Positions 16,061 through 48,967 of a stretch of 64,000 bases of DNA are shown one piece after another; the first letter of the stretch is position 1, and every line of letters begins with the position of its first letter. Origin of the DNA: an uncultured delta proteobacterium (GTDB taxonomy: Bacteria > Desulfobacterota > RBG-13-43-22). Position numbers and translations under genes: made by a program. Location of the stretch: positions 640,001-704,000 of the forward strand of contig CAWJJC010000028.1 in NCBI GenBank assembly GCA_963843145.1, written 5' to 3'. The notes beneath the pieces were generated by a model. That model saw only the letters and a list, made by a program, of their open reading frames with translations. It was not told the origin of the DNA and searched no databases.

Positions 16061-16070
16061 GGAGGCACTA

Positions 16071-29598: not shown

Positions 29599-29646
29599 CT
29601 TAATACGAAAATAATATCAGGCACCACACTGGGCCTTTGTTTTTGC

Positions 29647-30765: not shown

Positions 30766-30792
30766 TCAATCCGAATTACTCAAGGATTTTTA

Positions 30793-31743: not shown

Positions 31744-31745
31744 TC

Positions 31746-32522: not shown

Positions 32523-33228
32523 TCTGCGCGGGATCAACGCCTACTATGGGAGCATCCAGGCCCTGAAAAATGTCTTCCTGAAGGTTTCGACCGGGGATAT
32601 TGTGACGATAATCGGGGCCAACGGGGCCGGAAAGTCCACCCTGCTGAAAACGATCTCCGGGGTGATCCAGTCGAAAGGCGGGGCAGTCTGGTACGAGGAT
32701 ACGGACATTACCCGTTTTTCACCGGTTAAAATAGTGGCCCTGGGAATTTCTCAGGTACCGGAAGGCCGGCAGCTCTTCGCTCATCTCCCCGTCCTGGATA
32801 ACCTGCAACTGGGCGCCTATCTGTATCAAAACCGGAAATTCAAAAAGGAAATTCAAGAAAAGCTGGATTGGATTTATCAGGTATTCCCCATCCTGCGAAA
32901 AAGGTCCAAGCAGTTAGCCGGGACCCTGAGCGGCGGAGAGCAGCAGATGGTGGCCATTGCCCGGGCCTTGATGTCCCGTCCGAAACTCCTGCTTCTCGAC
33001 GAACCCTCCATGGGGCTGGCCCCCTTGATTGTCCAGGAGATCTTCCGGGTAATCCGTCAATTGAATGATCAGGGCACCACCATTCTGCTGGTGGAACAAA
33101 ACGCCCGCGCCGCTCTGCAGATTGCCAATTACGGCTATGTCCTGGAGACCGGTTCCATTGCCCTTGAAGGGCCGGCCCATGATCTTTTGGCGGATGAGAA
33201 AGTGCGCCACGCTTACTTGGGCAAATAA
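32515..33228 (+). CDS. livF: LIV-type ABC transporter ATP-binding protein
   Basis: GANGAGKST, VPEGR, LSGGEQQM, LLDEPSMGLAP. Confidence 0.92.
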   Translation: MLDLRGINAYYGSIQALKNVFLKVSTGDIVTIIGANGAGKSTLLKTISGVIQSKGGAVWYEDTDITRFSPVKIVALGISQVPEGRQLFAHLPVLDNLQLGAYLYQNRKFKKEIQEKLDWIYQVFPILRKRSKQLAGTLSGGEQQMVAIARALMSRPKLLLLDEPSMGLAPLIVQEIFRVIRQLNDQGTTILLVEQNARAALQIANYGYVLETGSIALEGPAHDLLADEKVRHAYLGK

Positions 33229-33267: not shown

Positions 33268-36200
33268 ATGAACCACGAAGCAACCGCGAAAATCGGGGCC
33301 GTTCTGGTCGTTGGGGCCGGTATCTCCGGGATGCAGTCGGCCCTGGACCTGGCCAATGCCGGCTTCAAGGTCTATCTGGCGGACCGCAACGTGAGCATCG
33401 GCGGGGTCATGGCCCAGTTGGACAAGACCTTTCCCACCAACGACTGCTCCACCTGCATGATTTCTCCCAAACTGATCGAAGTGTCCGGCAATCCCAATAT
33501 CGAACTCATCACCCGGGCCCGCCTGGAACACCTTTCCGGGGAACCCGGAAATTTCAAGGCCGAGATTTACCAGGAACCTCGGTTCATCAAGGAGGAAGTC
33601 TGCACCGGCTGCGGGGAGTGCATCCAGGTCTGCCCCGTGGAAGTTCCGGCCGATTTCAACCTGGGATTGAATCGCCGCAAAGCGATCTATCGCCATTTCC
33701 CCCAGGCCGTGCCTTCCACCTTTGCCATCGATCGACGGGGGACTTCCCCCTGCAAAGCGGCCTGCCCGGCCCATATCAGCGTTCAGGGGTACGTGGCCCT
33801 GATCGCCCAGGGGAAGTTTGAGGAAGCCTTGGGATTGATCCGCCGGGAAAATCCGCTGCCTTTCGTCTGCGGGTACGTCTGCACCCACCCCTGTGAGGGG
33901 GTCTGTAAAAGAGCGGAAGTGGAAGAAGCTATCGCCATTCGGGACCTGAAAAGGTTCGTGGCCGACTATGAGGCGAAAACCGGACCGGTCAAACTTCCGG
34001 CCCCGGAGGAAAAGCATATCCAGCGGGTAGCCATAATCGGGTCCGGGCCGGCAGGGTTGACCTGCGCCTATTATCTGGCCCGGCAGGGATACCCGGTCAC
34101 TATTTTTGAAGCGCTGCCCAAAGCCGGCGGTATGCTGACCGTAGGAATCCCCAACTACCGCTTGCCTCAGCAGGTGGTCGACCGAGAGATCGAGGCCATC
34201 AAGAGCTTGGGCGTGTCCATCGAGTTGAACAGCCCCATCGGGTCGGAACGGACTCTGGAGCAACTTAAGGAAGAGGGGTTTGAGGCCGTTTTCACAGCCA
34301 TTGGGGCCCACCAGGGGATTCGACTGGGGGTGGCCGGGGAAGACCTGCCGGGGGTCATGGCCGGGGTGGACCTCCTGCGGCAGTCGGCCCTCGGACAGCC
34401 GGTCCAGGTTGGAAAACGGGTGGCCGTCATCGGGGGCGGAAACGTGGCTATCGATGCCGTACGGTCCGCCCTGCGGCTGGGGTCCGAGGAGGGTCTGGTG
34501 ATCTACCGGCGAACCCGGGAAGAAATGCCGGCTTATGCCGAGGAAATCGAAGAAGCCCTGGAAGAGGGGGTTCGGATCGAATATCTGACGGCCCCGGTTC
34601 GATTTTTGGGGGATGAAAAAGGCAAGCTGAGGGCCTTGGAATGCCTGAAGATGGAACTGGGGGAGCCCGATGAGTCGGGACGACGTCGGCCCGTACCGGT
34701 AGCCGGTTCGGAATTTGAGATACCGGTGGATACGGTGATCACAGCCATCAGCCAGCAGCCGGATTTGGCTAAAATTAAGGTCCCCCAGGGCGTAGCGGTT
34801 TCAAAAAACGGAACCTTTGAGGTGGATCCGATTACCCTGCAGTCCGCGCTTCCCTGGCTGTTTGCCGGCGGGGACGCGGTGCTGGGTCCCCGGACGGTCA
34901 TCGAGGCCATTGCCCAGGGCAAGGAAGCCGCGCTTTCCATAGACCGCTATTTACAGGGCGGGGACCTGTTCGCCGGCCGGGAAAAGGCTTTCGAGATTGC
35001 TGAACCGGAAATTACCGGTGTCCTGAAGGAACCGCGATTCCGACCGCGGCTGCGGGCTCCCGGGGAGCGGCGGCGGGACTTCAGGGAAGTGGTGGAGGTC
35101 ATGACGCCGGAAGAAGCCCGGGCGGAGGCCTCCCGCTGCCTGGCCTGCGGGATCTGCTCGGAATGCTACCAGTGTCTGGAGGCCTGCCAGGCCGGGGCCA
35201 TCGACCACGCCATGGTTGGCGAAAAAATCACCCTACAGGTCGGAGCGGTGATCGCTTCACCGGGGTTTGAGATCTTCGATGCCCGCCTGAAGGAAGAATA
35301 CGGGTACGGGCGCTATCCCAACGTGTTGACCAGCCTGGAATTCGAACGGGTCCTGTCCGCTTCGGGTCCCTTCGGGGGCCATGTCCAGCGGCCCTCCGAC
35401 GGCCGGGAGCCCAAGAGAGTGGCCTGGATACAATGCGTCGGGTCCCGGGATGCTTCAATCAACCGGGAATATTGTTCCTATGTCTGCTGCATGTACGCCA
35501 CCAAGCAGGCTATCATCGCCAAGGAGCATCTGGCGGGCCTGGAGCCCACCATATTTTTTATCGATATCCGGGCCCAGGGAAAGGGCTTTGACCGTTATTA
35601 TGAGCGGGCCAGAGGGGAGCACGGGGTCCGGTATGTCCGCAGTCTGATCTCCCGGGTGGCCCAAGACCCGCAAACCCGGGACCTGCAGATTTCTTATATC
35701 GATGAGGACAACCGGTTTCAGACTGAGGAATTCGACTTGGTCATTTTGTCCGTGGGACTGACTCCCCATTCGCAGTCGGGCCCGCTGGCCAAATGCCTGG
35801 AGATCCGGACGGATCGTTTCGGTTTTTGCGTGAACCCGCCTCTGGATACGGTGGGCACGACCCGACCGGGAATCTTTGTGGGCGGGGTGTTCCAGAACCC
35901 CAAGGACATCCCGGAGACCGTCACCCAGGCCAGCGGGGCCGCGGCGGCCGCTGCCGCCTTGCTGACCGAGGCGCGGGGTACTCAAATCAAAGAGGTTTTT
36001 TTCCCCGAGGAAAGGTCCGTTCAGGCGGAGGAAGCCCGCATCGGGGTCTTTATCTGCCATTGCGGGATCAACATCGCCGGGATTGTGGACGTAGCTCAGG
36101 TTTCCGAATACGCCCGGACGCTGCCCGGGGTGGTTTATACCGATCACCTGCTGTTCACCTGTTCCACCGACAGTCAGGAGCGGATGCTCCAGTTGATCAA

Positions 36201-37690
36201 GGAACAACGGGCTGAACCGGGTGGTGGTGGCCTCCTGCTCGCCGCGCACCCATGAAGGCCTCTTCCGGAATACCCTGCGGAAAGCGGGTTTGAACAAATA
36301 CCTGTTCGAGATGGCCAACATCCGGGATCAATGCTCCTGGGTCCACCAGGCCGATCCCGCTGTCGCCACAGAAAAGGCCGAGGACCTGGTGCGCATGGCC
36401 GTGGCCCGGGCCGGTTTACTGGAACCCTTGTACGAGATCCCCTATGAGGTGAATCAGCGGGCCCTGGTAGTGGGCGGCGGAATCGCCGGCATGACGGCCG
36501 CCCTGAACCTGGCCGATCAGGGTTTTGAGACCTTCCTGATCGAACGTGCCGCTCAATTGGGAGGCATAGCCCGACGTATCCACCGGACCTTGGAAGGGGT
36601 GGATGTCCAGCAGTATCTCCAAGAGACCATTCACCGAGTGGTCGGCCATCCCCGTATCCGGCTTTTTATCGACACCGAACTGCTGGAGACCACCGGGACC
36701 GTGGGTCAATTCAGCAGCGTCTTTTCCCACCGGGGGGAAAAGGGGACTTTGAAACACGGGGCCGTGGTGGTGGCCGCCGGCGGGTTGGAGTACCGGCCGA
36801 CGGAGTACCATTATGGCGACCATCCCCGGATCCTGACCCAACTGGAACTTCAGGAAAGACTGTTTGCCGATCCGGAGGGAATAGGGAAACCCGGGTCGGT
36901 GGTCATGATCCAGTGCGTCGGTTCCCGGGACGAGGACCACCCCTACTGCAGTCGGGTTTGTTGTTCCACGGCCGTCCATAACGCCTTACGGATCAAGGAA
37001 ATCAGTCCGCAGACCGAGGTGGTGGTTCTTTACCGGGATATCCGCACCTATGCGCAGAAGGAACTGTATTACAAACAGGCCCGGGAGGCCGGGGTACGCT
37101 TCGTCCGCTTTGAACCGGAAAAGCGGCCGGAAGTGGATCTGGTGGAGGGGAATCTCGAAGTCCGGGTCTTTGACCAGAACCTGAAGGCCGGACTGCGTCT
37201 GCGTCCCGAGTGGATCGCCCTGTCGGCGGCTATCCGGCCGGCGGTGGAAAGCCGGTCTTTGGCGCAGACGCTGAAGCTGCCTTTTGACGCCGACGGCTTT
37301 TTTCTGGAGGCCCACATCAAGTTGCGGCCCCTGGATTTCGCCAACGCCGGGATGTTCCTTTGCGGCCTGGGACACGGTCCGAAGTTCCTGGAAGAGAGCA
37401 TCGCCCAGGCCAAGGGAGCGGCGGCTCGGGCGGCCACGGTGCTGGCCCAGAAACAAACCATGGTGGGCGGGCCGGTGGCCGAAGTCAACGAAGAGCTGTG
37501 CGTCGCCTGTCTGACCTGCCTGCGGGTCTGCCCCTTCGGGGTACCCCGGATCAACGAACGGCATTTCGCCCAGATCGACCCGGCCGCCTGCCGGGGCTGC
37601 GGGAACTGCGCCAGCGCTTGCCCCCAGGGAGCGATCCAGGTCGGCCACTACCTGGACGATCAGTATGTGGCCCTGTTGGAGGCGTGTTAG
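33268..37690 (+). CDS. hdrA: large HdrA-family flavoprotein with inserted GltD/NAD(P)H-binding module (HdrL-like); +1 frameshift near 36210
   Basis: GGVMAQLDKTFPTNDCSTC; ferredoxin CxxCxxC motifs; GltD-like CKAACPAH...GSGPAG...GGGNVAID; WIQCVGSRD; the frame switch restores GLNRVVVASCSPRTHE. Confidence 0.88.
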
Positions 37691-37851
37691 GGCGCAAAGC
37701 GCAAAGCGTAAGGCGTGAGTCGTAAGGCGTAAGGGGTAAAGGCATTGAAAATAACGGATTACTAATACGATCGTTTTTGAAAGGGCTAAACCGGAAGGAG
37801 CAAAGCCGTCTGGTTTTTTAACGACTTGCGCCTTACGACTTGCGCCTCGCG
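37691..37851. repeat. aggcgca/aggcgta heptamer inverted-repeat element
   Basis: ggcgcaaagcgcaaagcgtaaggcgtgagtcgtaaggcg...cgacttgcgccttacgacttgcgcc. Confidence 0.7.
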
Positions 37852-37863
37852 AGTTTTCTTAGA

Positions 37864-38295
37864 TTGGAATCATTCGAACCCAAACTCATCGCCATGGTCT
37901 GCACTTATTGCACCTATACGGCTGCGGATATGGCCGGTTCCCTGCGGCTTCAATATCCGCACAACGTGCGGATCATTAAATACCTTTGCACCGGCAAGGT
38001 GGATATCCAGCATATGCTGAAGGCCTTTGAGGGTGGGGCCGATGCCCTGCTGGTGGGCGGCTGAGCCATCGGGGACTGCCATTTCCTGGAAGGAAATCTC
38101 AGAGCCAAGGAGCGGGTGGAGTACACCAAAACCCTGTTAACGGAAATCGGCCTGGAACCCGAACGGCTGGAAATGTTTCATATCGGGGCCTCCGATGCCC
38201 CGCAGTGGGCCCAGGCGGTGACCGAGATGACGGAGCGGGCCAGGGGGTTGGGTCCGAATCCATTGAAAAAGTTAAAAGTTCAAAATGCGGAGTAG
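37864..38295 (+). CDS. mvhD: MvhD/FlpD iron-sulfur subunit, selenoprotein (in-frame TGA at 38062-38064)
   Basis: FEPKLIAMVCTYC..AAD, YP..VRIIKYLCTGKVD, GADALLVGG-U-AIGDCHFLEGN..GLEPERL; the frame stays open for 76 codons after the TGA; TTG start inferred. Confidence 0.9.
38081..38097 (+). promoter_or_regulatory. putative bacterial SECIS hairpin
   Basis: atttcct-gga-aggaaat stem-loop starting 16 nt after the UGA, with G in the apical loop. Confidence 0.65.
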
Positions 38296-38355
38296 AGTCT
38301 TTTTGAAAGGAATGGTGACTCAAGCAAGGAGGAGTTCTTAAATGGGAATTATAAA

Positions 38356-39039
38356 ATGATCGTCGCCCAACGCAAACCCTTTGCTGAAATCAAAAGGGCT
38401 TTAGCCCCTTATACGAATATCCTGGTGGCCGGGTGCGGGACCTGTGTGGCGGTCTGCCTGGCCGGGGGGAAAAAAGAGGTGGGTCTCTTGGCCAGCCAGC
38501 TCCGGATGAGTTTCGGCCTGGAGAAGAAGGAAGTGAAGATCTCCGAAGTGACCCTGGAACGGCAGTGCGATCGGGAGTTCCTGGAGATGGCCGGGAAAGA
38601 AGTGGAAGAGGCCGAGGCCGTGCTCTCCCTGGCCTGCGGGGCCGGGATCCAGTTCCTGGCTGAAGTCTATCCCCAACGGCCCGTGTATCCGGGGGTGAAT
38701 ACCACCTTCATCGGCGTGGCTGAGGCCGCCGGTCTCTGGACCGAGCGTTGCCGGGCCTGCGGAGATTGCCTGCTGGCGGAGACCGGCGGGATCTGCCCGA
38801 GGACCATCTGCGCCAAGGGGCTCAATAACGGGCCCTGCGGGGGCATGCTGGACGGGAAATGCGAGGTGGATCCGGAACGCCCCTGTGCCTGGGTGCTGAT
38901 TCATGATCGGCTGAGCCGGGAGGGGCGTTTGGCAGACTTGGAAGCGGTCAGGCCCCCCACGGACTTTGCCCGGCAAACCCAGCCCGGGAAAGTGACTCAC
39001 GCGGCTTATTTGCGGAGGTATCATGGCGACTCCAAGTAA
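38356..39039 (+). CDS. metV: methylene-THF reductase small subunit MetV
   Basis: GCGTCVAVC, ERQCD, ACGAG, ERCRACGDC...CPRTICAKGLNNGPCGG...CEV...CAW. Confidence 0.88.
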   Translation: MIVAQRKPFAEIKRALAPYTNILVAGCGTCVAVCLAGGKKEVGLLASQLRMSFGLEKKEVKISEVTLERQCDREFLEMAGKEVEEAEAVLSLACGAGIQFLAEVYPQRPVYPGVNTTFIGVAEAAGLWTERCRACGDCLLAETGGICPRTICAKGLNNGPCGGMLDGKCEVDPERPCAWVLIHDRLSREGRLADLEAVRPPTDFARQTQPGKVTHAAYLRRYHGDSK

Positions 39040-39901
39040 ATTTGCCCAAGACTTGGCCTCGGAGGAGTTCATCCTCACCGCTGAACTCGACCCTCCCAAG
39101 GGAGCGGACCCGGCGGTAGTTCAAAAAAAGATAGCCGCGCTTAAAGAGAAGGTCCAGGCCGTGGTGGTCTCGGATAACCACTCGGCCCGGATGCGCATGG
39201 CCCCGCTGGGTATCTGCCGAACCCTCCTTGATCAGGGACTGGAGCCGATCCTGACCCTGACCGGCCGGGACCGCAACCGTCTGGCCCTGCAATCCGATCT
39301 GCTGGCCGCCTTCAGTCTGGGAATTCAAAATGTATTGGCCGTAACCGGGGATCACACCTCCTGGGGGGACCATCCCCAGGCCAAGCCGGTGTATGATCTG
39401 GATTCGGTGCAACTTCTGAAGACCCTGAGCGCCTTGAATCGAGGCCAGGACCTTTCCGAAAATCCTTTGGAGGGCGCCCCGCCCCATTTTACGGTGGGAG
39501 CGGTAGTTCCCCTGGCGGCCAATCCCTTGGAACCGGTGATCATGAAGTTTCGCAAAAAAGCGGCCCAAGGCGTGGATTTTTTTATCAGTCACCCCCTTTT
39601 CGATTTAAAAAACGCGGATGAATTTTTTAAGCAGACCCCTGAGATCAAGACACCGCTTCTGGCTACCGTCTGTCTGCTGAAGTGGGATCAAATTGTCGGT
39701 TACCGCCCCGGGAACCTCCCGGGAATCTTTCTCCCCGAGGCGGTGTCGGAACAGTTTAAATCCTGGAAAGAGGAGACCTACGAGTCCAGGACCTGGGAGG
39801 TCGCCGGGAAGCTGATAGCAGCCGTGAAAAAAGACGGCCGGTTTCGAGGGGTGCATTTGATGCTGTCCGGAGAGGAAGAACGGGTAGGAGATCTGGTTTA
39901 G
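39023..39901 (+). CDS. metF: 5,10-methylenetetrahydrofolate reductase MetF
   Basis: TAELDPPKG, RDRNRLALQSDL, TGDH, VYDLDS. Confidence 0.88.
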   Translation: MATPSKFAQDLASEEFILTAELDPPKGADPAVVQKKIAALKEKVQAVVVSDNHSARMRMAPLGICRTLLDQGLEPILTLTGRDRNRLALQSDLLAAFSLGIQNVLAVTGDHTSWGDHPQAKPVYDLDSVQLLKTLSALNRGQDLSENPLEGAPPHFTVGAVVPLAANPLEPVIMKFRKKAAQGVDFFISHPLFDLKNADEFFKQTPEIKTPLLATVCLLKWDQIVGYRPGNLPGIFLPEAVSEQFKSWKEETYESRTWEVAGKLIAAVKKDGRFRGVHLMLSGEEERVGDLV

Positions 39902-39963
39902 AATAGTGGATGTATTTTTATTCTTCACGGGTCACGCTCTGAACTTGGCGGTTCAATAACGAA

Positions 39964-41031
39964 ATGAACCTGCAGAATCCAAAAGTACTGATCCTTGGCG
40001 GCGGGATCGCCGGACTGACAGCGGCATTGGCCTTGAACCGGTTGGGCGTATCCCTGGAGCTGCTGGAGAAAACCGCCGTCCTGGGCGGCGCGGCCCGGAA
40101 TTTCTGCTGTAAAGCAACCGATGTCTGCCGCCAGTGCGGGGCCTGTCTGGTAAACGATGCCCTCCGGGCCCTGATGCCGGCCGCACTGGCCGAGGCGCCT
40201 TCGCTGAGGATCCGGTTGAGATCCGAATTAACGGAAATTAGCCGGGAGGCCAAGGAATTTCTCTATAGCTATCGCGGCCCTGAAGGGGCCGGGGAAGGCC
40301 GGGCCGAGGCGCTGCTTCTGGCCACCGGCTTCACCCCCTTCAGGGCGGAAGACAAACCTCAATACGGCTACGGCCGTCTGCCCAATGTCCTCACCGGTTT
40401 GGACCTGGAAAAACAAATCAAAGAAACCGGTGCGGTGGTAAGACCCTCCGACCTTCAGACTCCCCAGTCCATCGCCTTCATTCAATGCGTTGGTAGTCGT
40501 GACCTGCATCTGGGACACCCGTTCTGCTCCCAGGTTTGTTGCGGATACGCGCTGCGTCTGGCCGGCCTGATTCGCCACCGTACCCCTGGAACGGCGGTGA
40601 CGATTTTCTACATGGACATCCAGAACTTTGGGAAAGATTTTTCCCGGTTTCTGGATGAGGCTCGGCAGCAGATGCGTTTTATTCGCTCCATCCCGGGAGA
40701 TATTCAGGGAGGGGAAAACGATCGGCTCCTGCTGACCTATCAACAGGATGACGGCCTGCCGAGTCAAAAGGAAACCTTCGACCTGGTGGTCCTTTCGATC
40801 GGTTTAATGCCGGGAGCCGATTTGATCGGGCTTAGTCAAAAGATCAATCTTCCGCTGAACGCCGACGGGTTTTTAACAAAAGATGGAGACCGGTTTTCCC
40901 TTTCTCCGGCCGAAGGGGTATTTTTTGCAGGGACCGTTTCCGGTCCCAAAAGCATTTCCCGATCGGTTTCCCAGGCCCAACAAGCCTCCGAAGAGCTGGT
41001 CCAATTTTTGAAGGGGAGGGGCCTATCGTGA
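39964..41031 (+). CDS. short HdrA-like flavoprotein (QmoA-like architecture)
   Basis: GGGIAG; CCKATDVCRQCGAC; YGYGRLPNV; FIQCVGSRD..CSQVCC. Confidence 0.8.
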   Translation: MNLQNPKVLILGGGIAGLTAALALNRLGVSLELLEKTAVLGGAARNFCCKATDVCRQCGACLVNDALRALMPAALAEAPSLRIRLRSELTEISREAKEFLYSYRGPEGAGEGRAEALLLATGFTPFRAEDKPQYGYGRLPNVLTGLDLEKQIKETGAVVRPSDLQTPQSIAFIQCVGSRDLHLGHPFCSQVCCGYALRLAGLIRHRTPGTAVTIFYMDIQNFGKDFSRFLDEARQQMRFIRSIPGDIQGGENDRLLLTYQQDDGLPSQKETFDLVVLSIGLMPGADLIGLSQKINLPLNADGFLTKDGDRFSLSPAEGVFFAGTVSGPKSISRSVSQAQQASEELVQFLKGRGLS

Positions 41032-42764
41032 TTCCCCTCGCGGAATTTCAGAAAAGGCCCAGGGTTTTAGTCGTGGGGGGGGGATTGACGGCCCTGGAAG
41101 CCGCCAGCCGATTGATCGCTTTCGGGTATGAGGTGCTGGTCGCTTATCCGGAGGCGGAACTTCGGACGGTGAAATCCTTGCTCCCGGAAGACCGGAAAAT
41201 GCCGGGTTACGCGCGGGATCTGCTGGATAGAATGAAAACCCAAGAGCGGGTTTCTTTTTATCCGGAAACCCTGGTGGGGTCGATTTCCGGGTTTGCTGGG
41301 GATTTCGAGGTGCAAATCCAGTCGCCCCAAAAAGAATGGCTTGAGCCGGTGGGGGCGATCGTCCTGGCCCCGGAGTTGGTTTCAACCGGAACGTCTTTTC
41401 CCGATCCCTTGAGTTCTTCCGGGCAAATAGTCCTCCTGGATCAATTGGTGGAGGAATTAAGCGCACCTTCCGGTACCTCCCGGGGTATTTATTCGTTGAA
41501 TTCCGCTTCCTACGCGGCTTTTCTGATCGGGCTGAACGGCGCCGGGGGAACGGCCGCCATGGCCCAGGCCTTGGAGTCGGCGATCATCCTCCGGAAAAAA
41601 TTCGAGGTCCAGGTTTATTTTTTTACCGGAAATGTCAAGGTGGCCGAGGAGGGACTGGAGCGGCTCTACCTGGAAGCCCGTGACGCGGGGGTGGTTTTTT
41701 TTAAACTGGAGGCTGAAAAACTGGAATTTCTGAAAAAGGGCGACCAGGTTACGCTCCAGTTCATTGATCCCCTGCTGGGGCAGCCCTTTGAATTGCTGCC
41801 GGACCTGCTGGTCGTCGATTCGCGGCCGCTTCTTCCCGCCGACGTGCAGTCCCTGGCGCTATCGACCCAATTGGGATTGGATCCCGCCGGTTACCTGCAA
41901 TCGGGCAACGTGCACCTCTGGCCCCAGGGGTTGGACCGGACCGGCATCTTTGCCGCCGGTCCCGGGAAAGGCCCGTTGATGGTCGCAGCCGCCATCGAGG
42001 AAGGGCGGGGAGCGGCCTTGTCGGTCCACCAATTTTTCGAGGGGCGCCCTGCGGAACCCCTGGACCGCGAGGTGGTGGTCGATAAGGGCCTGTGCACCGT
42101 CTGCCTGACCTGTCTGCGCTTTTGCCCTCACCAGGCCATCGGCTGGACCCATCGGATATTCATCCACCCCCTGGCCTGCCGGCGCTGCGGCATCTGCGCC
42201 AGCGAGTGCCCTATGGATGCCATTCAGATCGCCGGGTACTCCGATTCGGAGGTGGAACAACGGCTGCTGGAAATCAGCCGGCAGTGGGAAGAGAGGAGGG
42301 CCGGGGATCCCCGGATCCTCGTTTTCGGCTGCCGACGGTCGGCCGGGATGGCCTGGGACGAAATGACGCAAGGCGCCAGTCGTAAGGCGCAAGGCGAAAA
42401 AAAAGAAATTCCGACAAGCTGTTCCTGGGATCAGGGATCGGTGGAATTTATCGGGTTGCCGTGCGCCGGGAAGCTGGACCCGGATTTTCTGCTGAAAGCT
42501 CTGTCCCTGGGCGCTGATGGGGTGCTGGTCCTGGCCTGTCCGGAAGAGAATTGCCGATCCAACCACGGCAACACCTATGCCCGAGATCGATTAGCGGAAG
42601 CCTCGGATTATTTGGAAGAAGCGGGCCTTGATCGCCGGCGCCTCCGGTTTGAGCATATTTCCAGCAACCGGGTATTTCTTTTGGATGAGGTCCTTCAAGA
42701 CCTTATTAAAGGTATAAAAGGGTTGGAGGGGAGGGCACCCGCGGAGCATGAAAATAAGGATTGA
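41028..42764 (+). CDS. HdrA-fragment/ferredoxin/MvhD fusion (QmoB-like architecture)
   Basis: VVGGGLTA; CTVCLTCLRFCP and CRRCGICASECP; C-terminal MvhD domain FGCRRS, LPCAGK, GADGVLVLAC..NC. Confidence 0.82.
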   Translation: MIPLAEFQKRPRVLVVGGGLTALEAASRLIAFGYEVLVAYPEAELRTVKSLLPEDRKMPGYARDLLDRMKTQERVSFYPETLVGSISGFAGDFEVQIQSPQKEWLEPVGAIVLAPELVSTGTSFPDPLSSSGQIVLLDQLVEELSAPSGTSRGIYSLNSASYAAFLIGLNGAGGTAAMAQALESAIILRKKFEVQVYFFTGNVKVAEEGLERLYLEARDAGVVFFKLEAEKLEFLKKGDQVTLQFIDPLLGQPFELLPDLLVVDSRPLLPADVQSLALSTQLGLDPAGYLQSGNVHLWPQGLDRTGIFAAGPGKGPLMVAAAIEEGRGAALSVHQFFEGRPAEPLDREVVVDKGLCTVCLTCLRFCPHQAIGWTHRIFIHPLACRRCGICASECPMDAIQIAGYSDSEVEQRLLEISRQWEERRAGDPRILVFGCRRSAGMAWDEMTQGASRKAQGEKKEIPTSCSWDQGSVEFIGLPCAGKLDPDFLLKALSLGADGVLVLACPEENCRSNHGNTYARDRLAEASDYLEEAGLDRRRLRFEHISSNRVFLLDEVLQDLIKGIKGLEGRAPAEHENKD

Positions 42765-42772
42765 CCAGGATT

Positions 42773-42861
42773 CGTCATTCCGGACAAGCGAAGCGCGATC
42801 CGGAATCCAGCCTCGGATAAGCTCTGGAGGGCCTGGATACCGGATCAAGTCCGGTATGACG
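42773..42861. repeat. CGTC-type palindromic repeat, copy 6
   Basis: cgtcattccggacaagcgaagcgcgatccggaatccag...ctggataccggatcaagtccggtatgacg. Confidence 0.85.
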
Positions 42862-42907
42862 AAAAAAAGCCTGAAAAAGCGGTGATAGATTCTATTTTCG
42901 TACTAAT

Positions 42908-43384
42908 ATGGAACGTATTGATCTCAGAAAACTTGACCCGGATTTCAAGCATCGGCTGGCCCGGGAACTGGGCGGGGAGCATATCCGCAATTGCTATGCC
43001 TGCGGGGTCTGTTCGGCCCGGTGTCCCATCGAAAAGATCGAACCGGAATTCAACCCCCGGAAGATGATTCGGATGATTCTCCTGGGAATGGAGGAGGACC
43101 TGCTTAAACAGGATCTTCTCTGGCATTGCTCCAACTGCTACACCTGCCAGGAGAGCTGTCCGGAAAAAGTGAATTTCACCGAAGTGATTTTTGCTTTGAG
43201 AAATATGGCCGTTCGCCAGGGCCTGGCCCCCCCGGGTATGGGTGCGGCCCAGAACCTCCTCGGTCAGCAGGGGCGGATGTATGAAGTGGGCGAATTCGAA
43301 AATGAAAAGCGGCAGGAACTGGGGTTGCCGAAGATTAAGATGGATACCGTAAGCATTAGAAAAATATTGGAAGATAAAGAATAA
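42908..43384 (+). CDS. hdrC: heterodisulfide reductase subunit C
   Basis: CYACGVCSARCP, NPRKMIR, WHCSNCYTCQESCP. Confidence 0.9.
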   Translation: MERIDLRKLDPDFKHRLARELGGEHIRNCYACGVCSARCPIEKIEPEFNPRKMIRMILLGMEEDLLKQDLLWHCSNCYTCQESCPEKVNFTEVIFALRNMAVRQGLAPPGMGAAQNLLGQQGRMYEVGEFENEKRQELGLPKIKMDTVSIRKILEDKE

Positions 43385-43392
43385 CGGAGGTT

Positions 43393-43522
43393 AAACTCGA
43401 AACTCGAAATCCGAAACAAATTCAAATGACCAAATATCAAAATTCGAAACCTTCCCGTTTTAATCATTTGAATTTTGGAAATTCGTGCTTGTTTCGGATT
43501 TCGTGCTTCGAATTTCGGATTT
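43393..43522. repeat. tcgaaa/tttcgg heptamer inverted-repeat element
   Basis: aaactcgaaactcgaaatccgaaacaa...ttgtttcggatttcgtgcttcgaatttcggattt. Confidence 0.75.
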
Positions 43523-43539
43523 AGGGTTTTGCCATATTT

Positions 43540-44421
43540 ATGCGATACGCCTTTTTCCTGGGCTGCACCGTCCCGGTGCGCAACTTAAATTATGAATTGG
43601 CCTCTCGCCGGGTGGCTGAAAGGCTGGAGCTCGAGCTGGTGGACCTGGAAGAATTCCAGTGCTGCGGATTTCCCCTGAAGTCTATCAGTTTTATCGATTC
43701 CCTGGTCGTCGCCGCCCGCAATCTGGCCCTGGCCGAGCAGGCCGGACTCCCGGTCTGTACCCTCTGCAGCGCCTGCGGCGGGTCTTTGAGTGAGGCTCAT
43801 CATCTGCTGGAACAGCATCCGGAACTCAAGGCCCAGGTCAATGAGCGCTTGCGTGTCTTGGGTCTGGAATATAAGGGTTCTTCCGAGGTCAAGCATTTTG
43901 TCCGGGTTTTATATGAGGAAGTGGGCCTGGGAAAGATAGCCGAGAAAATCAGTCGCCCCCTGACCGGTTTTTCTTTTGCCCCCCATTACGGGTGCCATTA
44001 TATCAAACCGGCCGAAGCAACGGGGGGGCTGGACCCGGTGGAAGATCCGATCACCCTGACCCGGCTGATCGAGGTCACCGGGGCCTCCGCGACCGTGTAT
44101 CCTTCACTGCTTCAGTGCTGCGGTGGAGGCGTCCTAGGGGCCAAAGAGGACCTGGCCAACACCCTGGCAGGTGAAAAATTGGGGGAATTGAATCAGTTAG
44201 GCACTACCGGGCTGGTGGTGATCTGCCCCTTTTGCAACGTTATGTTTGAGGGACAGCAAAAGAAAATCGAGAAGAAACTGGATCAGAAACTGAAGGTGCC
44301 GGTACTCTATTACCCGCAACTGTTGGGTCTGGCTATGGGGTTCACCCCGGATCAACTGGGTTTCAAGTTGAACCGGGTTAAGGACAAGGAGTTCCTTAAA
44401 AAGATGGAGGCGGCTAAATGA
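43540..44421 (+). CDS. hdrB: heterodisulfide reductase subunit B
   Basis: YAFFLGC, QCCG, CSAC, HYGCH, QCCGG, CPFC, YYPQLLGLA. Confidence 0.92.
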   Translation: MRYAFFLGCTVPVRNLNYELASRRVAERLELELVDLEEFQCCGFPLKSISFIDSLVVAARNLALAEQAGLPVCTLCSACGGSLSEAHHLLEQHPELKAQVNERLRVLGLEYKGSSEVKHFVRVLYEEVGLGKIAEKISRPLTGFSFAPHYGCHYIKPAEATGGLDPVEDPITLTRLIEVTGASATVYPSLLQCCGGGVLGAKEDLANTLAGEKLGELNQLGTTGLVVICPFCNVMFEGQQKKIEKKLDQKLKVPVLYYPQLLGLAMGFTPDQLGFKLNRVKDKEFLKKMEAAK

Positions 44422-44434
44422 AGGAGGGATTGCA

Positions 44435-44475
44435 ACAATAATTAATAATCAATTGTTAATTATTAATTATTAAAA
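44435..44475. repeat. AT-rich heptamer inverted repeat
   Basis: acaataattaataatcaattgttaattattaattatt. Confidence 0.6.
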
Positions 44476-44584
44476 TCATCAGGTTATGGCTTCAGCTCAT
44501 CCGTTTTAAATTCATTTATCGCGGGTGCCCACCCCGGGCAGCGCGGTTTAGCCAATAAATCCAGAGGAATAAAGGAGGAGCGTC

Positions 44585-45016
44585 ATGGAGATCGAAGGGT
44601 ATGATTTTCCCGATGAATTATGGTATGATAAGAACCACTTCTGGGCCCGGATCGAAGGGGATACGGTCGTCATGGGTACCACCGACTTTGCCCAGAAACT
44701 GGCCGGCGAAATCGGATATGTGGAACTGCCGGAAGCCGGACAAAAAGTGACCCAGGGCAAGCCTTTCGGTTCCATCGAATCCGGTAAATGGGTGGGACGG
44801 ATTTATGCGGTCCTTTCCGGTCAGGTGACGGAGGTCAACGAGGCCTTGGAGGACGAACCGGAATTGATTAATAACTCGGCGTATGATCAAGGCTGGATCT
44901 GCAAGCTTTCTCCTGAAAACCTGGACGCGGAAAAAGCCAACCTGATGACGGCCGCTGATCTGAAGCCCTTTATCGAAGCCGAGGTGGCTCGGGTGAAGGA
45001 ATTGATGAATAAATAA
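44585..45016 (+). CDS. GcvH-family lipoyl carrier, LbpA-like (ESGKWVG)
   Basis: FPDELWY..H.W, GTTDFAQKLAG, lipoyl lysine in SIESGKWVG, PELIN..Y..GWI. Confidence 0.88.
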   Translation: MEIEGYDFPDELWYDKNHFWARIEGDTVVMGTTDFAQKLAGEIGYVELPEAGQKVTQGKPFGSIESGKWVGRIYAVLSGQVTEVNEALEDEPELINNSAYDQGWICKLSPENLDAEKANLMTAADLKPFIEAEVARVKELMNK

Positions 45017-45132
45017 AATCAAGAAAAAAGGTTAAAGGATAAAGGAAAAAGGATAGAGGACAAGCAGGGACCAACAAGGTTTGGGTGTTTTTTCTCGTTT
45101 CTCGATCCTCGATCCTTGAGGAAGGAGTCTTT

Positions 45133-47715
45133 ATGGGTTATATTGATGAATTGAAACAGGTGCTGGGTCCGGAAAACGTCAATACCGGGGAAATCGATTG
45201 CTTTAGTGTTTCCCGGGATCTCTCGGTACACGAAGGGTTTCCGGAGGTCATCGTCTTTGCCCGCAGTACCGAGGAAGTGGTGGGCGTGGTCAAAGTCGCG
45301 GCAGCCCATAAAATCCCGGTGACGGCCCGGGGGGCTGGAACCAGCGCGACCGGGGCGGCCCTGGCCTCCAAGGGCGGTATTCTGCTCGATCTCTCCCACA
45401 TGAATAAGATCAAAGAATTGAATAAGAACGACCGGTACGTCAGCGTGGAACCGGGGATCATCTGCAACGCCTTGAACGCCCAGTTGGAACCGACCCATTT
45501 TTTCCCTCCGGACCCCGGCAGCGCTCCTATCTGCACTATCGGTGGGATGATTGCTTGCAACGCCAGCGGGGTCCGGGCCGTGAAATACGGGACCACCCGG
45601 GACTATGTCATGGGGTTGGAGGTAGTCCTGGCCGACGGCCGGCTTATTCATACCGGATCGCTGGCTCCCAAAACCGCGGCCGGATATGATCTGACGCACC
45701 TCTTCGCCTCATCGGAAGGGACCTTGGGCATTATTACCTCCGCCACGTTGAAGATTCTACCCAAACCTCCCTATATCGCTTTTGCCAAAGCTTCCTTCCC
45801 TTCCATCGAAACGGCCGGCCGAACCGTGGAAAAGATCCTCTCTTCCGGGATCCGCCTGTCTTCGTGTGAAATCCTGGACGATATGTCGATCGAGGTGGTC
45901 AAAAAGGCCATGAAGCTCGACTTTCCGCCCGAAGTGAAATGCGTCCTCTTCATGGAAATCGACGGCCACAAGCTGGAAGTCCAGGATTACATTTCCCGGA
46001 TCAACGCCCTCTGTAAAGAAATGGGGGGCATAGAAAACGAATGGTCGGACGACCCGGCCCAACGATTGGCCATGTGGTCGGCCCGACAAGGTCTGACTCC
46101 CGCCTTGTCCAGGATCAAACCGGGTTACCGGTTGATACCGATCGTGGAAGATTTCGGAATGCCCATCAGCCAAATCCCGGCCACGATCACCGCGATCCAG
46201 GACGTGGGGAAGCGGCATAATTTCCCGATCGCCACCTTCGGCCATATCGGGGATGGAAATTTACACGCCGTCATTGTCATGGATGTGCGCAAAAAGGAAG
46301 AGTGGGAAACCTTGCGCAAGATCGCTCAGGATTTCATCGACCTCACCCTCAAATTCCGCGGCACTTTGACGGCGGAACATGGCCTGGGTATGGCCAAGTC
46401 GCCCTATATTAAGGCCGAACTGGGAAACGCCCTGGAGGTCATGGAACAAATTAAGAAGACCCTGGATCCGGACAACATCTTCAATCCGGGGAAGATGGGC
46501 TTTGCGGACAGCCCCCAAGACATTCTGGGACAGTTCGCCTTCGCCTATCTTCTGGAACATCCGGAAGACCGCCAAAGCTTCGGGGAAAAGATTGATAACG
46601 AGCTCCTGGCTTGCATCCAGTGCGGGTTCTGCCGGGCTGGTTGTCCCACGTACACCCAGACCGGCCTGGAGTCCATGAATGCTCGAGGCCGGGTCCTGCT
46701 GGCTTTTAATTTGATGAGCGGTCGTCTTAAACCCTCGGCCGAAATGGCAACCCGACTCTACCAGTGCACCAACTGCCTGAACTGCAAATACACCTGCCCT
46801 TCCCGGGTGGAGGTGGCGGATATCGTCCAGGCCGCCCGTAAGCGTCTGGCGGAAAACGGCTTTTTGCCCGAGGTCTTTCAAGCCGGCAGTAAGAGTATTA
46901 TCCAGTACGGGAATCCTTTCGGAGAACCCCGGGAAAAGCGGACCGACACCTTCCCGACCGGATTTCAGCCGGCGCAAAAGGGGGCCGAGGTGCTGCTCTT
47001 TGGCGGCTGCGTGGGGTCCTATCAGGATGTCAACCTGATACCCAACCTGATGGCTATTTTAGACAAGGCCGGAATCTCCTATACGGCCCTGGGGCAGGAA
47101 GAGGACTGTTGCGGGTATCTGAGTTACCTGATCGGGCGGGAAGAGGATTTCCGGACTTGCGTGGCCGGTAATACCCGAAAATTTGCCGAGTTGGGCGTTA
47201 AAGAAATCGTTACCAGTTGCCCCGGCTGCTACCGGACTTTGAGTAAACTTTACCCCGCCTACGGGGGCAGTTCGGCGATCAAGGTCCATCATGTCACTAC
47301 CTTCCTGAACGACTTGCTGAGCCAGGGGAAAATCCCGCTGAAGGGCAACGGCGCTCAGAAGATTGCCTATCATGACCCCTGCGACCTGGGCCGCCACATG
47401 AACATCTTTGAGGAGCCGCGTAATGTGTTGAAAAGCCTGCCCGGCGTGGAGTTGACCGAGTTTAAACTCAACCGTCTGCTGGCCAAGTGCTGCGGCAGCG
47501 GGGGAGGAGTGAAAGGTTTTGACAACCCCCTCAGTCAGGACATCGCCTACCAGCGCGTCCTCCAGGCCCTGGAAGTGGGGGCCGAGGTGATCGTTTCCGC
47601 CTGCCCCTCCTGCAAGAGTAACCTGACCCAAGGGGCGGCCCGGGTACGGAAGGAAAAGAAAGGAAAGATCAAAGTCAAGGATATTACCGAGGTCGTGGCG
47701 GCGGCTTTGGCTTAA
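45133..47715 (+). CDS. FAD-linked 2-hydroxyacid dehydrogenase (GlcD/Dld) fused to an Fe-S/CCG (GlcF/HdrD-like) domain
   Basis: RGAGTS, PPDPGS, KYGTTRDYV, SEGTLG, GHIGDGNLH, AEHGLG; CIQCGFCRAGCP, CTNCLNC; two CCG motifs; YHDPCDLGR. Confidence 0.9.
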   Translation: MGYIDELKQVLGPENVNTGEIDCFSVSRDLSVHEGFPEVIVFARSTEEVVGVVKVAAAHKIPVTARGAGTSATGAALASKGGILLDLSHMNKIKELNKNDRYVSVEPGIICNALNAQLEPTHFFPPDPGSAPICTIGGMIACNASGVRAVKYGTTRDYVMGLEVVLADGRLIHTGSLAPKTAAGYDLTHLFASSEGTLGIITSATLKILPKPPYIAFAKASFPSIETAGRTVEKILSSGIRLSSCEILDDMSIEVVKKAMKLDFPPEVKCVLFMEIDGHKLEVQDYISRINALCKEMGGIENEWSDDPAQRLAMWSARQGLTPALSRIKPGYRLIPIVEDFGMPISQIPATITAIQDVGKRHNFPIATFGHIGDGNLHAVIVMDVRKKEEWETLRKIAQDFIDLTLKFRGTLTAEHGLGMAKSPYIKAELGNALEVMEQIKKTLDPDNIFNPGKMGFADSPQDILGQFAFAYLLEHPEDRQSFGEKIDNELLACIQCGFCRAGCPTYTQTGLESMNARGRVLLAFNLMSGRLKPSAEMATRLYQCTNCLNCKYTCPSRVEVADIVQAARKRLAENGFLPEVFQAGSKSIIQYGNPFGEPREKRTDTFPTGFQPAQKGAEVLLFGGCVGSYQDVNLIPNLMAILDKAGISYTALGQEEDCCGYLSYLIGREEDFRTCVAGNTRKFAELGVKEIVTSCPGCYRTLSKLYPAYGGSSAIKVHHVTTFLNDLLSQGKIPLKGNGAQKIAYHDPCDLGRHMNIFEEPRNVLKSLPGVELTEFKLNRLLAKCCGSGGGVKGFDNPLSQDIAYQRVLQALEVGAEVIVSACPSCKSNLTQGAARVRKEKKGKIKVKDITEVVAAALA

Positions 47716-47746: not shown

Positions 47747-48967
47747 ATGAAGGCGATTCAGTCTGCCAAAATAATGAAAAAGATCATGGCCGATCACTTC
47801 CTGAATCTCGACCGGGCTGCCCGGGCGGGAAAACCCAAGGTGGCCTGGTGCACCAGCGTGGGACCGGCCGAACTGCTGCGGGGGATGGGTTTCCTGGTCT
47901 ATTTCCCCGAAAATCACGGGGCCATGCTGGGCGCCACCCGAATGGCCACGGAATTCATCCCCGTGGCCAATGCCAGGGGCTACTCGCCGGAGATCTGTTC
48001 TTACCTGACCAGCGATGTGGGATCCTACTTGAAAAAAACGACGCCTCTGACGAAAGCCTACGGGCTGGAGTCCGTTCCCCGGCCCGACGTGCTGGTCTTT
48101 AATACCAACCAGTGCCGGGATGTGAAGGATTGGTTTTCCTGGTACTCACGGGAACTGCAGGTGCCGGTGTTGGGAATCCATTCCTATCGCAATATCGGGA
48201 CCATCACCGAGCATGAAATACGGGATATTGCGGAACAGATCAAAGGCTTGATACCCACCCTGGAGGAGGTTAGCGGGGAAAAATTCGACCTGGACCGCTT
48301 CCGGGAGGCGGTGGGTCTCTCCCGGGATACCTCCCGGCTTTGGCGGGCCGTACTGGAGACCGCCGCCACCATTCCCTCTCCCTGGACCTTTTTTGACGCC
48401 ACCATTCATATGGGTCCGGCCGTGGTGGCCAGGGGCACCCGGGAGGCGGTGGATTACTATCGGATACTGCTAACGGAGCTCCAGCAACGGGTTAAAGACG
48501 GTGTGGCCGCCATCGAGGGGGAAAAGCACCGCCTGTACTGGGAGGGCATGCCCATCTGGGGGAAATTGCGTCCTTTGTCGGACCTACTGGAATCTCTCCG
48601 TACCTGTGTGGTGGCCTCCACCTACTGCAACAGTTGGATCTTCGATCAATTAGACCCCGACGATCCCTTCGATAGCATGGCCCGGGCCTATACCGAACTG
48701 TTTATCGTGCGGGATGAAAGCTACAAAGAGCAGTATATCCAGAATTGTTTTGAACGATTCAAATTTGACGGAATCCTCTTCCATGACGCCCGGACCTGCC
48801 CCAATAATTCCAACAGCCGCTATGGGATGCCGGAACGGCTGGCCCGCAAATTAGGGATATCCACGGTAACCATTAACGGGGATCTCAATGATTTGCGTTG
48901 TTACTCCGAAGAGCAGGCCAGGACCCAGATCGAAGCCTTTGTGGAACAGTTGGAGGAAAAGCGCTGA
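47747..48967 (+). CDS. 2-hydroxyacyl-CoA dehydratase / benzoyl-CoA reductase B-C family subunit (HGD-D)
   Basis: VAWCTS..PAELL, YFPEN, GYSPEICSY, NQC, RLYWEGMP, RTC, IEAF. Confidence 0.85.
   Translation: MKAIQSAKIMKKIMADHFLNLDRAARAGKPKVAWCTSVGPAELLRGMGFLVYFPENHGAMLGATRMATEFIPVANARGYSPEICSYLTSDVGSYLKKTTPLTKAYGLESVPRPDVLVFNTNQCRDVKDWFSWYSRELQVPVLGIHSYRNIGTITEHEIRDIAEQIKGLIPTLEEVSGEKFDLDRFREAVGLSRDTSRLWRAVLETAATIPSPWTFFDATIHMGPAVVARGTREAVDYYRILLTELQQRVKDGVAAIEGEKHRLYWEGMPIWGKLRPLSDLLESLRTCVVASTYCNSWIFDQLDPDDPFDSMARAYTELFIVRDESYKEQYIQNCFERFKFDGILFHDARTCPNNSNSRYGMPERLARKLGISTVTINGDLNDLRCYSEEQARTQIEAFVEQLEEKR

Follow-up and report, generated by a model that had tools for sequence, protein, structure and literature searches.

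A GKW-type H-protein encoded between hdrB and a GlcD-CCG fusion gene is a candidate lipoyl carrier for CCG-domain enzymes in a sulfite-reducer-like soil bacterium

The window analyzed here is a stretch of 64,000 nucleotides (C28:640001-704000) from the 5.35-Mb genome of an uncultured delta proteobacterium, described as a sulfite-reducer-like soil bacterium, whose assembly comprises 32 contigs and is 97.9% complete and 6.9% contaminated. Positions 33268-47715 of this window contain a run of genes for proteins of the heterodisulfide reductase (Hdr) type, together with metV and metF, a gene for a small protein of the glycine cleavage H-protein family (44585-45016), and a gene for a D-2-hydroxyacid dehydrogenase fused to CCG domains. 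The H-protein is called GKW-type here, after the residues around its lysine. Comparisons of its sequence, its gene neighborhood in relatives and the lipoate assembly genes that accompany it suggest that it is a dedicated lipoyl dithiol/disulfide carrier for the active sites of CCG-domain enzymes and does not act in glycine cleavage, a reading to which we assign a probability of roughly 0.55. The gene run had originally been predicted from the letters of the DNA alone, and it is present as predicted: open reading frames (ORFs), Pfam and NCBIfam place all of the named genes of 33268-47715 on the + strand, co-oriented from hdrL to the GlcD-CCG fusion. The conserved cluster extends further, to 51774, adding a HadB-like HGD-D protein, an activase and an acyl-coenzyme A (CoA) ligase. 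Its genes are as follows.

33268 to 36255, + strand: hdrL part 1, a GltD/NfnB-like iron-sulfur (FeS) flavoprotein module that binds reduced nicotinamide adenine dinucleotide (phosphate), NAD(P)H, followed by an HdrA-like stretch (Pfam Fer4_20 and Pyr_redox_2).
36221 to 37690, + strand: hdrL part 2, an HdrA core with a flavin adenine dinucleotide (FAD) site and a C-terminal 2x[4Fe-4S] ferredoxin domain (Pfam Pyr_redox_2, FAD_oxidored and Fer4).
37894 to 38295, + strand: mvhD with a selenocysteine codon (TGA at 38062-38064) and a tentative start codon.
38356 to 39039, + strand: metV, the small subunit (DUF5981) of methylenetetrahydrofolate reductase (MTHFR) (Pfam PF12225, expect value (E) 2.9e-35).
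39023 to 39901, + strand: metF, methylenetetrahydrofolate reductase (Pfam PF02219, E 3.9e-18; MTHFR part of NCBIfam PRK08645, E 1.6e-56).
39964 to 41031, + strand: N-terminal, FAD-binding half of a second HdrA (Pfam Pyr_redox_2; positions 318-561 of the NCBIfam HdrA2 model).
41028 to 42764, + strand: C-terminal half of the second HdrA, fused to an MvhD domain (Pfam Fer4 at residues 349-400; FlpD/MvhD at 471-566, E 6.8e-24).
42908 to 43384, + strand: hdrC (Pfam Fer4_8; TIGR03290, E 2.3e-29, under its cut-off).
43540 to 44421, + strand: hdrB with two CCG domains (Pfam CCG twice; TIGR03288, 260.5 bits against a cut-off of 345).
44585 to 45016, + strand: GKW-type H-protein of 143 amino acids, with Lys68 in ESGKWVGR (Pfam GCV_H, E 2.3e-39).
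45085 to 47715, + strand: GlcD/LDHD-type D-2-hydroxyacid dehydrogenase fused to an FeS plus 2xCCG (HdrD/GlcF-like) module (Pfam FAD_binding_4, FAD-oxidase_C, Fer4_8 and CCG twice).
47747 to 48967, + strand: HGD-D family protein, nearest to the alpha subunit of 2-hydroxyisocaproyl-CoA dehydratase (Pfam PF06050, E 3.3e-64; PDB 3o3m, E 2.5e-55).
49232 to 50020, + strand: acyl-CoA dehydratase activase, a BcrAD/BadFG ATPase (TIGR00241, 197 bits, above its cut-off).
50191 to 51774, + strand: ANL-family acyl-CoA ligase (Pfam AMP-binding; nearest structures FadD5 and FadD13).

The two hdrL ORFs are read as one gene, because relatives have a single uninterrupted frame: one extra base at ~36208 splits hdrL into two overlapping ORFs, and this base is missing from three relatives, in which the HdrL and HdrA parts are contiguous and in one frame. 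An independent metagenome contig that is identical over 36132-36283 likewise omits the extra base, although this is weak evidence, coming from a single contig at a depth of 2.3. The extra base is probably an assembly error, or else a strain variant, and the ~14 final residues of the first ORF are an out-of-frame tail. The first part scores 565.7 bits with NCBIfam PRK12771, above the cut-off, and the HdrA2 model covers its residues 614-901; the second part matches the NCBIfam HdrA2, HdrA and hdrA_Methbact models with E 1.5e-124 to 2.6e-91, all under their cut-offs. In mvhD, translation around the TGA codon reads GG-TGA-AIGDCH. The selenocysteine predicted for this gene is borne out by relatives, as the TGA is retained in 10/10 orthologues of at least 72% identity and aligns with a Cys codon in 21/26 other homologue rows; a tRNA-SeC is encoded in the genome. 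The true start of the GlcD-CCG fusion is probably the ATG at 45133, and alignments in relatives mostly begin at query residues 9-23, with three beginning at 1-6. The HGD-D protein has its activase, and no gene for a second dehydratase subunit adjoins it; instead of a dehydratase, it might be a homomeric reductase of the double-cubane type, though the NCBIfam double_cubane model gives it only 57 bits.

As had been predicted, the window contains no partner genes of glycine cleavage, no dsrC and no hydrogenase: tblastn with the genome's own gcvT, gcvPA, gcvPB and Lpd gave no match in the window, the three DsrC-family matches of the genome all lie on other contigs, and no hydrogenase was found among the 46 window ORFs scanned against Pfam. 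The genome does encode dsrAB and the three DsrC-family genes elsewhere. Upstream, the regions 629-17171 and 28311-33228 hold a leucine/isovalerate-type set consisting of a carboxyltransferase, a biotin carboxylase, enoyl-CoA hydratases, three acyl-CoA dehydrogenases, a thiolase and a BKACE protein, together with a LivJHMGF-type ABC transporter that immediately precedes hdrL. A tungsten-type aldehyde:ferredoxin oxidoreductase is encoded at 19001-20737 on the minus strand. Directly after the cluster, a 419-amino-acid ORF at 51848-53107 (minus strand) matched no Pfam or NCBIfam family. A search for transcripts listed 7 sequencing runs from 4 studies, all of them DNA, with small word shares, and none RNA.

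The AlphaFold2 model of the H-protein has a predicted local distance difference test score of 95 and adopts the H-protein fold, with template modelling scores of 0.85-0.88 and a root-mean-square deviation of ~1 Å against the Thermus, pea and E. coli H-proteins (1onl, 1htp and 3ab9). In this model, Lys68 sits at the tip of a hairpin, between strands 60-66 and 70-74. The lysine is invariant in 42/42 relatives and in 20/20 proteins of a broader set, and the motif ESGKWVG, which had been singled out as differing from that of GcvH, recurs in 119/121 sequences (the query and the 120 homologues listed), the other 2/121 having ETGKWVG. By sequence score alone the protein is nevertheless a GcvH, since it passes the GcvH cut-offs (TIGR00527, 121.6 against 115.85; PRK01202, 140.9 against 117), and this weighs against placing it outside glycine cleavage.

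A tree of 69 rows gives a different picture. It comprised 25 close relatives, 20 distant GKW proteins, 20 canonical-type proteins of the same phylum, 10 of which sit beside gcvT or gcvP, and four paralogues from this genome; it held no LbpA sequences. A single branch divides the 45 GKW rows from the 22 canonical rows in all (100%) of 200 bootstrap trees, and it has support of 73/82 in a careful tree and an SH-aLRT value of 98 in a quick tree. Signature residues accompany the split. At position 19, F or Y is found in 42/42 narrow-clade GKW rows versus E in 12/20 canonical rows. Around the lysine (K), position K-1 is G in the GKW type and V, A or R in the canonical type, K+1 is W in 61/62 GKW rows and A, T or S in canonical rows, and K+3 is G as opposed to S or A. 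Position K+4 is R or K in 57/62 GKW rows, including R in 42/42 of the narrow clade, versus D or E in 19/20 canonical rows. In the pea H-protein, the canonical Glu of the HEW motif and the Asp or Glu four residues past the lysine hold the aminomethyl arm. The isoelectric point (pI) of the window protein is 4.36, with a clade median of 4.35 and 4.05 for canonical proteins. Judged from these sequences, the window protein belongs to a distinct GKW branch, a paralogue apart from the glycine cleavage H-protein.

The genome also has a canonical system of its own. It holds seven GCV_H-family matches, including the window copy, and near-identical gcvT-H-PA-PB operons lie on the duplicate contigs C18 and C19, with H-proteins that differ at 2 residues; this duplication suggests strain heterogeneity or redundant assembly and fits the contamination estimate. 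Another gcvH adjoins a true Lpd gene on C22. The remaining paralogues are unusual. One, at C22:337706-338149, lacks the lysine (IEAQLSV) and has a poly-Glu tail. Another, of 324 amino acids (C9:24675-25649), has a Cys-rich N-terminal half ahead of its GCV_H domain. A divergent GcvH-related protein of 175 amino acids with the lysine motif IITGKIKY is encoded at C22:129530-130057, and ~440 bp downstream of it lies a DsrC-family gene (C22:130495-130782), a pairing of an H-like protein with a thiol/disulfide protein. In other genomes, the free-standing H-proteins of loci L117-L120 carry the lysine in EARKTVA(E/D)LYA and have neither gcvT nor gcvP within 4 kb; they fall inside the canonical side of the tree and may represent a further subtype.

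Could the GKW protein nonetheless be an extra H-protein of glycine cleavage or glycine synthase, exchanging one-carbon (C1) units with methylene-tetrahydrofolate (THF)? Such an exchange would explain the location of its gene near metVF, and a link between MTHFR and glycine cleavage does exist in the phylum, as L123 and L130 have metV-metF immediately ahead of a canonical gcvT-gcvH-gcvPA-gcvPB operon, an association unlike that of the window. Passing the GcvH cut-offs fits this explanation as well, and so do the Wood-Ljungdahl clusters of clostridia, in which gcvH and lpdA are found beside metVF (PMC4600107, PMC5039349). These clusters resemble the window in having an H-protein gene near metVF, no gcvP or gcvT, and no explanation of its function, and they differ from it in lacking Hdr genes and including lpdA. 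We consider the explanation improbable. A canonical operon is present elsewhere in the genome with its own gcvH, the window protein falls in a separate clade, the acidic residues at positions 19 and K+4 that would hold the arm are replaced, and the window has neither gcvT nor gcvP. It is for the first three of these reasons that the protein is taken not to be the glycine cleavage H-protein, and the prediction that it would stand apart from canonical GcvH has held up.

The neighborhoods of relatives speak more directly to what the protein works with. A scan that covered one genome per species yielded 214 relatives of the H-protein. Of these, the 80 best loci, each from a different species genome, were analyzed by tblastn with the window proteins as queries; none of the 80 came to light through a gcv neighbor, gcvT and gcvP not being among these queries. 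Where records are named, the relatives are almost all uncultured metagenome-assembled genomes of the Thermodesulfobacteriota type (with Desulfarculia, Syntrophaceae, Syntrophobacterales, Desulfomonile and Syntrophorhabdus labels), a few are labelled just Pseudomonadota, Proteobacteria or "uncultured bacterium", and one is an isolate, Desulfocarbo indianensis (L074). A CCG-domain protein of any kind is encoded within 300 bp of the H-protein in 47/80 loci, within 1 kb in 58/80 and within 10 kb in 66/80, and it is present in 41 of the 46 loci that have at least 5 kb on both flanks. HdrB itself lies within 1 kb in 42/80 and within 10 kb in 44/80; the end of hdrB lies 2 bases ahead of the H-protein gene start in several relatives. 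Within 10 kb, the full GlcD-CCG fusion is found in 44/80 loci, a free-standing HdrD-like protein in 14/80, the acyl-CoA ligase in 58/80, the HGD-D protein and its activase in 17/80 and 16/80, and MetF in 10/80. As a rough control, 1/20 canonical gcvH loci (~4 kb on each side) had an HdrB-like neighbor.

Comparison of the CCG and MetF counts therefore identifies the H-protein and a CCG protein as the core pairing, and this tracking of CCG proteins and not of MetVF is a further point against a role in C1 exchange. The link to MetVF, in turn, is lineage-specific, being confined to the window's own family, given how few loci have MetF. Gene order in relatives, whose conservation had been set as a check on the original prediction, is thus kept in one part and not in the other: the HdrCB and GlcD-CCG neighbors are retained, but those of MetVF are not, and the hdr-mvhD-metVF order of the window is kept in just 10 loci (L010, L012-L015 and L018-L022). 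Loss within the family follows the same pairing. Five sampled genomes of the window's family that have no H-protein have no orthologous HdrB either (best matches of 34-40% identity) and no intact GlcD-CCG orthologue. One of them has broken pieces of the latter: in G229, C53:15399-17404 carries a GlcD-CCG orthologue of 70-74% identity as pieces with in-frame stops, beside an intact acyl-CoA ligase, which reflects either decay or poor assembly.

There are exceptions that count against a fixed pairing. No CCG protein was found, at the thresholds used, in the DNA covered for 14/80 loci; three of these have a divergent or broken HdrB and several are short contigs. The full-length loci L026 and L071 carry a formate-dehydrogenase-like/Mrp cluster instead of a CCG protein.

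Two other neighbors were considered as partners and rejected. The ANL ligase was a candidate dedicated partner, for example as an activator of octanoate or lipoate, and a close orthologue is indeed present in 39/39 genomes that carry the H-protein, but it is also present in 87 that do not. Orthologues in non-carriers reach 76% identity across families, and in L026 the gene stands beside secDF and rplM; it looks like a conserved housekeeping neighbor and not a carrier-specific one. The HadB-like protein and activase were likewise rejected as members of the core, being found in only 16-17/80 loci, and are kept as lineage-specific context. These counts bear on a further explanation, that what the lipoyl arm carries is not electrons alone but also acyl or other groups, taken from a 2-oxoacid E1-type enzyme or delivered to CoA chemistry, or that Lys68 bears an acyl group other than lipoate. 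The surroundings in the window lend it some plausibility, with the HadB-like protein, activase and acyl-CoA ligase downstream and the leucine-type set and Liv transporter upstream. A more distant GKW locus, L097:333-16462, also fits: it runs Lpd, a LipB::LipA fusion, E1 alpha, E1 beta (with no E2), a multihaem::NarI-like protein and the GKW H-protein, and continues with an ANL ligase, an HdrD-like protein, sLpl, LipT, LipS1 and LipS2, a glyoxalase-like protein also being encoded in the cluster. The ligase is nevertheless found in those 87 genomes without the H-protein and the HGD-D protein and activase are infrequent, leaving the CCG domain as the sole constant partner, and an acyl carrier seems unlikely to us.

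For a carrier role, the lysine would need to be lipoylated, and the machinery sought for this is present in the genome in two forms. LipA adjoins a LipB-like gene, and a second route is encoded at C28:228753-233287 in the order LipS1, sLpl-like ligase, LipT and LipS2. LipS1, LipS2 and the sLpl-like ligase score under their NCBIfam cut-offs, and LipT scores above its own, so that this cluster is considered related but divergent. It lies 410 kb from the H-protein gene of the window. In the 97.9%-complete genome no E2 of a 2-oxoacid dehydrogenase was found, so that no lipoylation targets were seen other than the H-type proteins.

The second route also accompanies the H-protein across genomes. In an evenly drawn, unselected sample of 401 genomes of the phylum, in which a carrier is a genome with the H-protein at no less than 55% identity, LipS1 is present in 36/39 carriers versus 35/362 others. 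Most of those 35 have a GKW protein of 40-53% identity. Among 20 distant GKW loci in this range of identity, 17 have an adjacent CCG protein and 15 have sLpl and/or LipS alongside, counts that are biased, as 16 of the 20 were chosen for nearby LipS1 coordinates; the typical order is H-protein, HdrD-like protein, sLpl, LipT, LipS1 and LipS2. It must be set against the co-occurrence that the genomes are kin, and the counts therefore overstate the independence of the observations.

GcvH serves as a scaffold or relay for lipoate assembly in Bacillus subtilis, and the GKW protein might similarly be the scaffold on which sLpl and LipS1/S2 assemble lipoate, passing the cofactor onward without being a redox partner of Hdr. 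That distant GKW proteins head operons with sLpl, LipT, LipS1 and LipS2, and that LipS1 co-occurs with the protein at the genome level, is what such a scaffold would lead one to expect. Against it, no E2 acceptor was found; only two LplA/LipB-type catalytic domains were found in the genome, with no obvious amidotransferase. Moreover, the window gene is placed inside an Hdr cluster at a distance from the assembly genes, and its constant CCG neighbor is left without an explanation. We regard the scaffold as an unlikely alternative, if marginally less so than the acyl carrier.

The proposed partners of the carrier keep their characteristic residues. In HdrB, C9, C41, C42, C76 and C79 and C152, C193, C194, C229 and C232 are invariant in 42 sequences, so that its two CCG motifs have five cysteines each, as for a non-cubane [4Fe-4S] cluster. 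The known chemistry of the CCG domain is disulfide cleavage. The closest solved structures to the GlcD domain of the fusion are LDHD (8jdc, E 3.3e-85) and LctD (7qh2, E 4e-73), and its GHIGDGNLH and EHGLG motifs align with the same motifs of LDHD 8jdc; we take these motifs to supply the His/His/Glu metal site of GlcD/LDHD-type enzymes.

On this basis, we infer lipoylation of the H-protein, its contact with CCG sites, a direction of electron flow and, in the window's lineage, coupling to MetVF. Lipoate would be attached to Lys68, most likely via the sLpl-LipT-LipS1/LipS2 route. At the non-cubane FeS (CCG) sites of HdrB and the GlcD-FeS-CCG fusion, its dithiolane would alternate between the disulfide and the dithiol form. 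The H-protein would then take the place held in methanogens by CoM-S-S-CoB, the heterodisulfide of coenzymes M and B. Via HdrC and the HdrA flavin, the redox state of the carrier would be tied to ferredoxin, and through the GltD-like module of HdrL it would be tied to NAD(P)H; in the window's lineage only, MetVF would further link it to methyl-/methylene-THF. Interconversion of D-2-hydroxyacids and 2-oxoacids would be connected to the same carrier pool by the GlcD fusion. The Liv transporter, the leucine-type set and the HadB-like protein hint that the substrates may be branched-chain 2-hydroxy- and 2-oxoacids.

Several points weigh against this mechanism, or constrain it. The potential of lipoamide is ~-290 mV, compared with -320 mV for NAD, -190 mV for lactate/pyruvate, -200 mV for methylene-/methyl-THF and ~-450 mV for ferredoxin. 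Given these potentials, oxidation of a 2-hydroxyacid (~-190 mV) cannot alone reduce lipoamide, which is also poorly suited as the high-potential acceptor when electrons from NADH are bifurcated. The potentials hence argue against the original prediction that 2-hydroxyacid oxidation feeds the lipoyl carrier, unless reduced ferredoxin takes part or the flow is reversed. Both would be feasible: in confurcation, reduced ferredoxin and either methyl-THF or a hydroxyacid would jointly reduce the carrier or NAD(P)+, and in reverse flow, the reduced carrier would reduce 2-oxoacids. A binding prediction for HdrB with the H-protein gave a score of 0.01 against a mark of 0.32, with no controls folded, and weighs neither for nor against their contact.

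The disulfide usually assumed for the Hdr-like enzymes of sulfate reducers is DsrC, which is encoded in this genome and is a possible rival substrate for Hdr. In that case, the Hdr modules would act on DsrC or another thiol, and the H-protein would be a bystander at the CCG sites, for instance reoxidized by Lpd alone. The genome has what this needs, namely dsrAB, the three DsrC-family genes, and an Lpd that has a gcvH to itself. In the window, however, there is no dsrC, and the H-protein gene is kept beside three kinds of CCG protein across classes and is lost together with HdrB within the family; the odds of this explanation appear low.

The closest experimental precedent for a lipoyl carrier of Hdr-type enzymes is LbpA, which is essential for the sHdr system of sulfur oxidizers (PMC6067878); sHdr-LbpA systems are found in Hyphomicrobium denitrificans, Thioalkalivibrio and Aquifex (Cao et al. 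2018, PMC6067878; Tanabe et al. 2023, PMC10332631; Kumpel et al. 2026, preprint, 10.64898/2026.10.01.755906). LbpA is marked by a conserved lysine, basic surfaces, hdr-like neighbors, the sLpl-LipS1/S2 route and two conserved cysteines, one near each terminus (PMC6067878; 10.64898/2026.10.01.755906), its basic interaction surface being accompanied by a pI above ~4.5 (10.64898/2026.10.01.755906). The likeness to LbpA that had been proposed for the window protein stands in part. As in sHdr-LbpA systems, the gene for a single-domain lipoyl protein resembling GcvH adjoins Hdr-type CCG genes, the lysine is conserved, and a second sLpl-LipT-LipS1/LipS2 assembly route is present in the genome besides LipA. 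The terminal cysteines, in contrast, are absent: a Cys in the first or last 12 residues is found in 0/42 relatives, and in 0 and 1 of 20 in the broader set. The window protein is also acidic, its pI of 4.36 lying below the mark of ~4.5. Its Hdr partner differs too, being an HdrABC/MvhD-type module with MetVF and the GlcD fusion and not sHdrC1B1AHC2B2; the assembly genes are distant, and the host has dsrAB. General scans of the 46 window ORFs brought up no sulfur transferase (DsrE, TusA or rhodanese), no search having been targeted at these proteins. A PDB sequence search with the H-protein returned 14 H-proteins and no LbpA, no LbpA model was among its NCBIfam matches, and its ESM Atlas clusters were all named GcvH. 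A tblastn search of plasmids returned 167 records, two of which were viewed: a canonical gcvTHP (Aliiroseovarius) and a gcvH among OsmC and thioredoxin genes (Priestia). We would accordingly call the window protein LbpA-like by context, without filing it as LbpA.

The remainder of the cluster resembles the MetFV-HdrABC-MvhD complex of Moorella thermoacetica, reportedly described as a methylene-THF reductase by Mock et al. in 2014, in that metV and metF are clustered with hdrA, mvhD, hdrC and hdrB. Unlike in Moorella, there are two HdrA-type units here, one of which carries a GltD-like NAD(P)H module as a fusion, MvhD is a selenoprotein, and the window further encodes a GlcD-CCG fusion and a dedicated lipoyl protein of the H type. 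The second electron acceptor of the Moorella complex is given as unidentified (PMC5039349). As for the GlcD domain, its closest solved relatives are the GlcD-type FAD domains of the Acetobacterium woodii LctBCD complex (7qh2) and mammalian LDHD (8jdc). Lactate oxidation by A. woodii LctBCD needs reduced ferredoxin as a co-donor. The window enzyme is unlike LctBCD in that electrons would exit via the fused FeS and CCG module, not via Etf.

A lipoyl group as the disulfide carrier of HdrB has been suggested before, for GcvH in Culexarchaeia (Kohtz et al. 2022, PMC9723716). The Ehe/Ehd systems concerned differ in being archaeal and set in the context of an HdrB-linked membrane hydrogenase, with no MetVF or GlcD fusion, and the paper gives no analysis of the H-protein family (PMC9723716). 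In our literature search, neither an Hdr/GcvH pairing in syntrophs or Desulfobacterota nor the GKW branch was found to be described, and the search for GcvH-like proteins together with heterodisulfide reductase returned only papers of the Dahl group. What is already known is hence the sHdr-LbpA precedent, which is experimental, and the Culexarchaeia suggestion from 2022 (PMC9723716). Added here are the MetVF context and its extent, the phylum-wide co-occurrence with LipS1, the GKW signature residues, and the finding that the neighboring acyl-CoA ligase is not carrier-specific.

The substrate of HdrB-type enzymes outside methanogens is a long-standing gap that affects the understanding of electron bifurcation in acetogens, syntrophs and sulfate reducers, and a small protein, predicted to be lipoylatable and encoded alongside three kinds of CCG enzyme, is a concrete candidate for this partner. 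A broader proposal, which we advance tentatively and rate as less probable than the carrier role itself, is that GKW H-proteins might be the physiological dithiol/disulfide substrate of HdrB-type CCG sites in non-methanogenic anaerobes and, in the window's lineage, the missing redox partner of MetVF-HdrABC-MvhD, with a fused D-2-hydroxyacid dehydrogenase feeding or draining the carrier pool and with an sLpl-LipS1/S2 route of their own. A cultured carrier exists in Desulfocarbo indianensis. Annotation pipelines label the GKW protein "glycine cleavage system protein GcvH", which could mislead reconstructions of glycine and C1 metabolism in the organisms that encode it.

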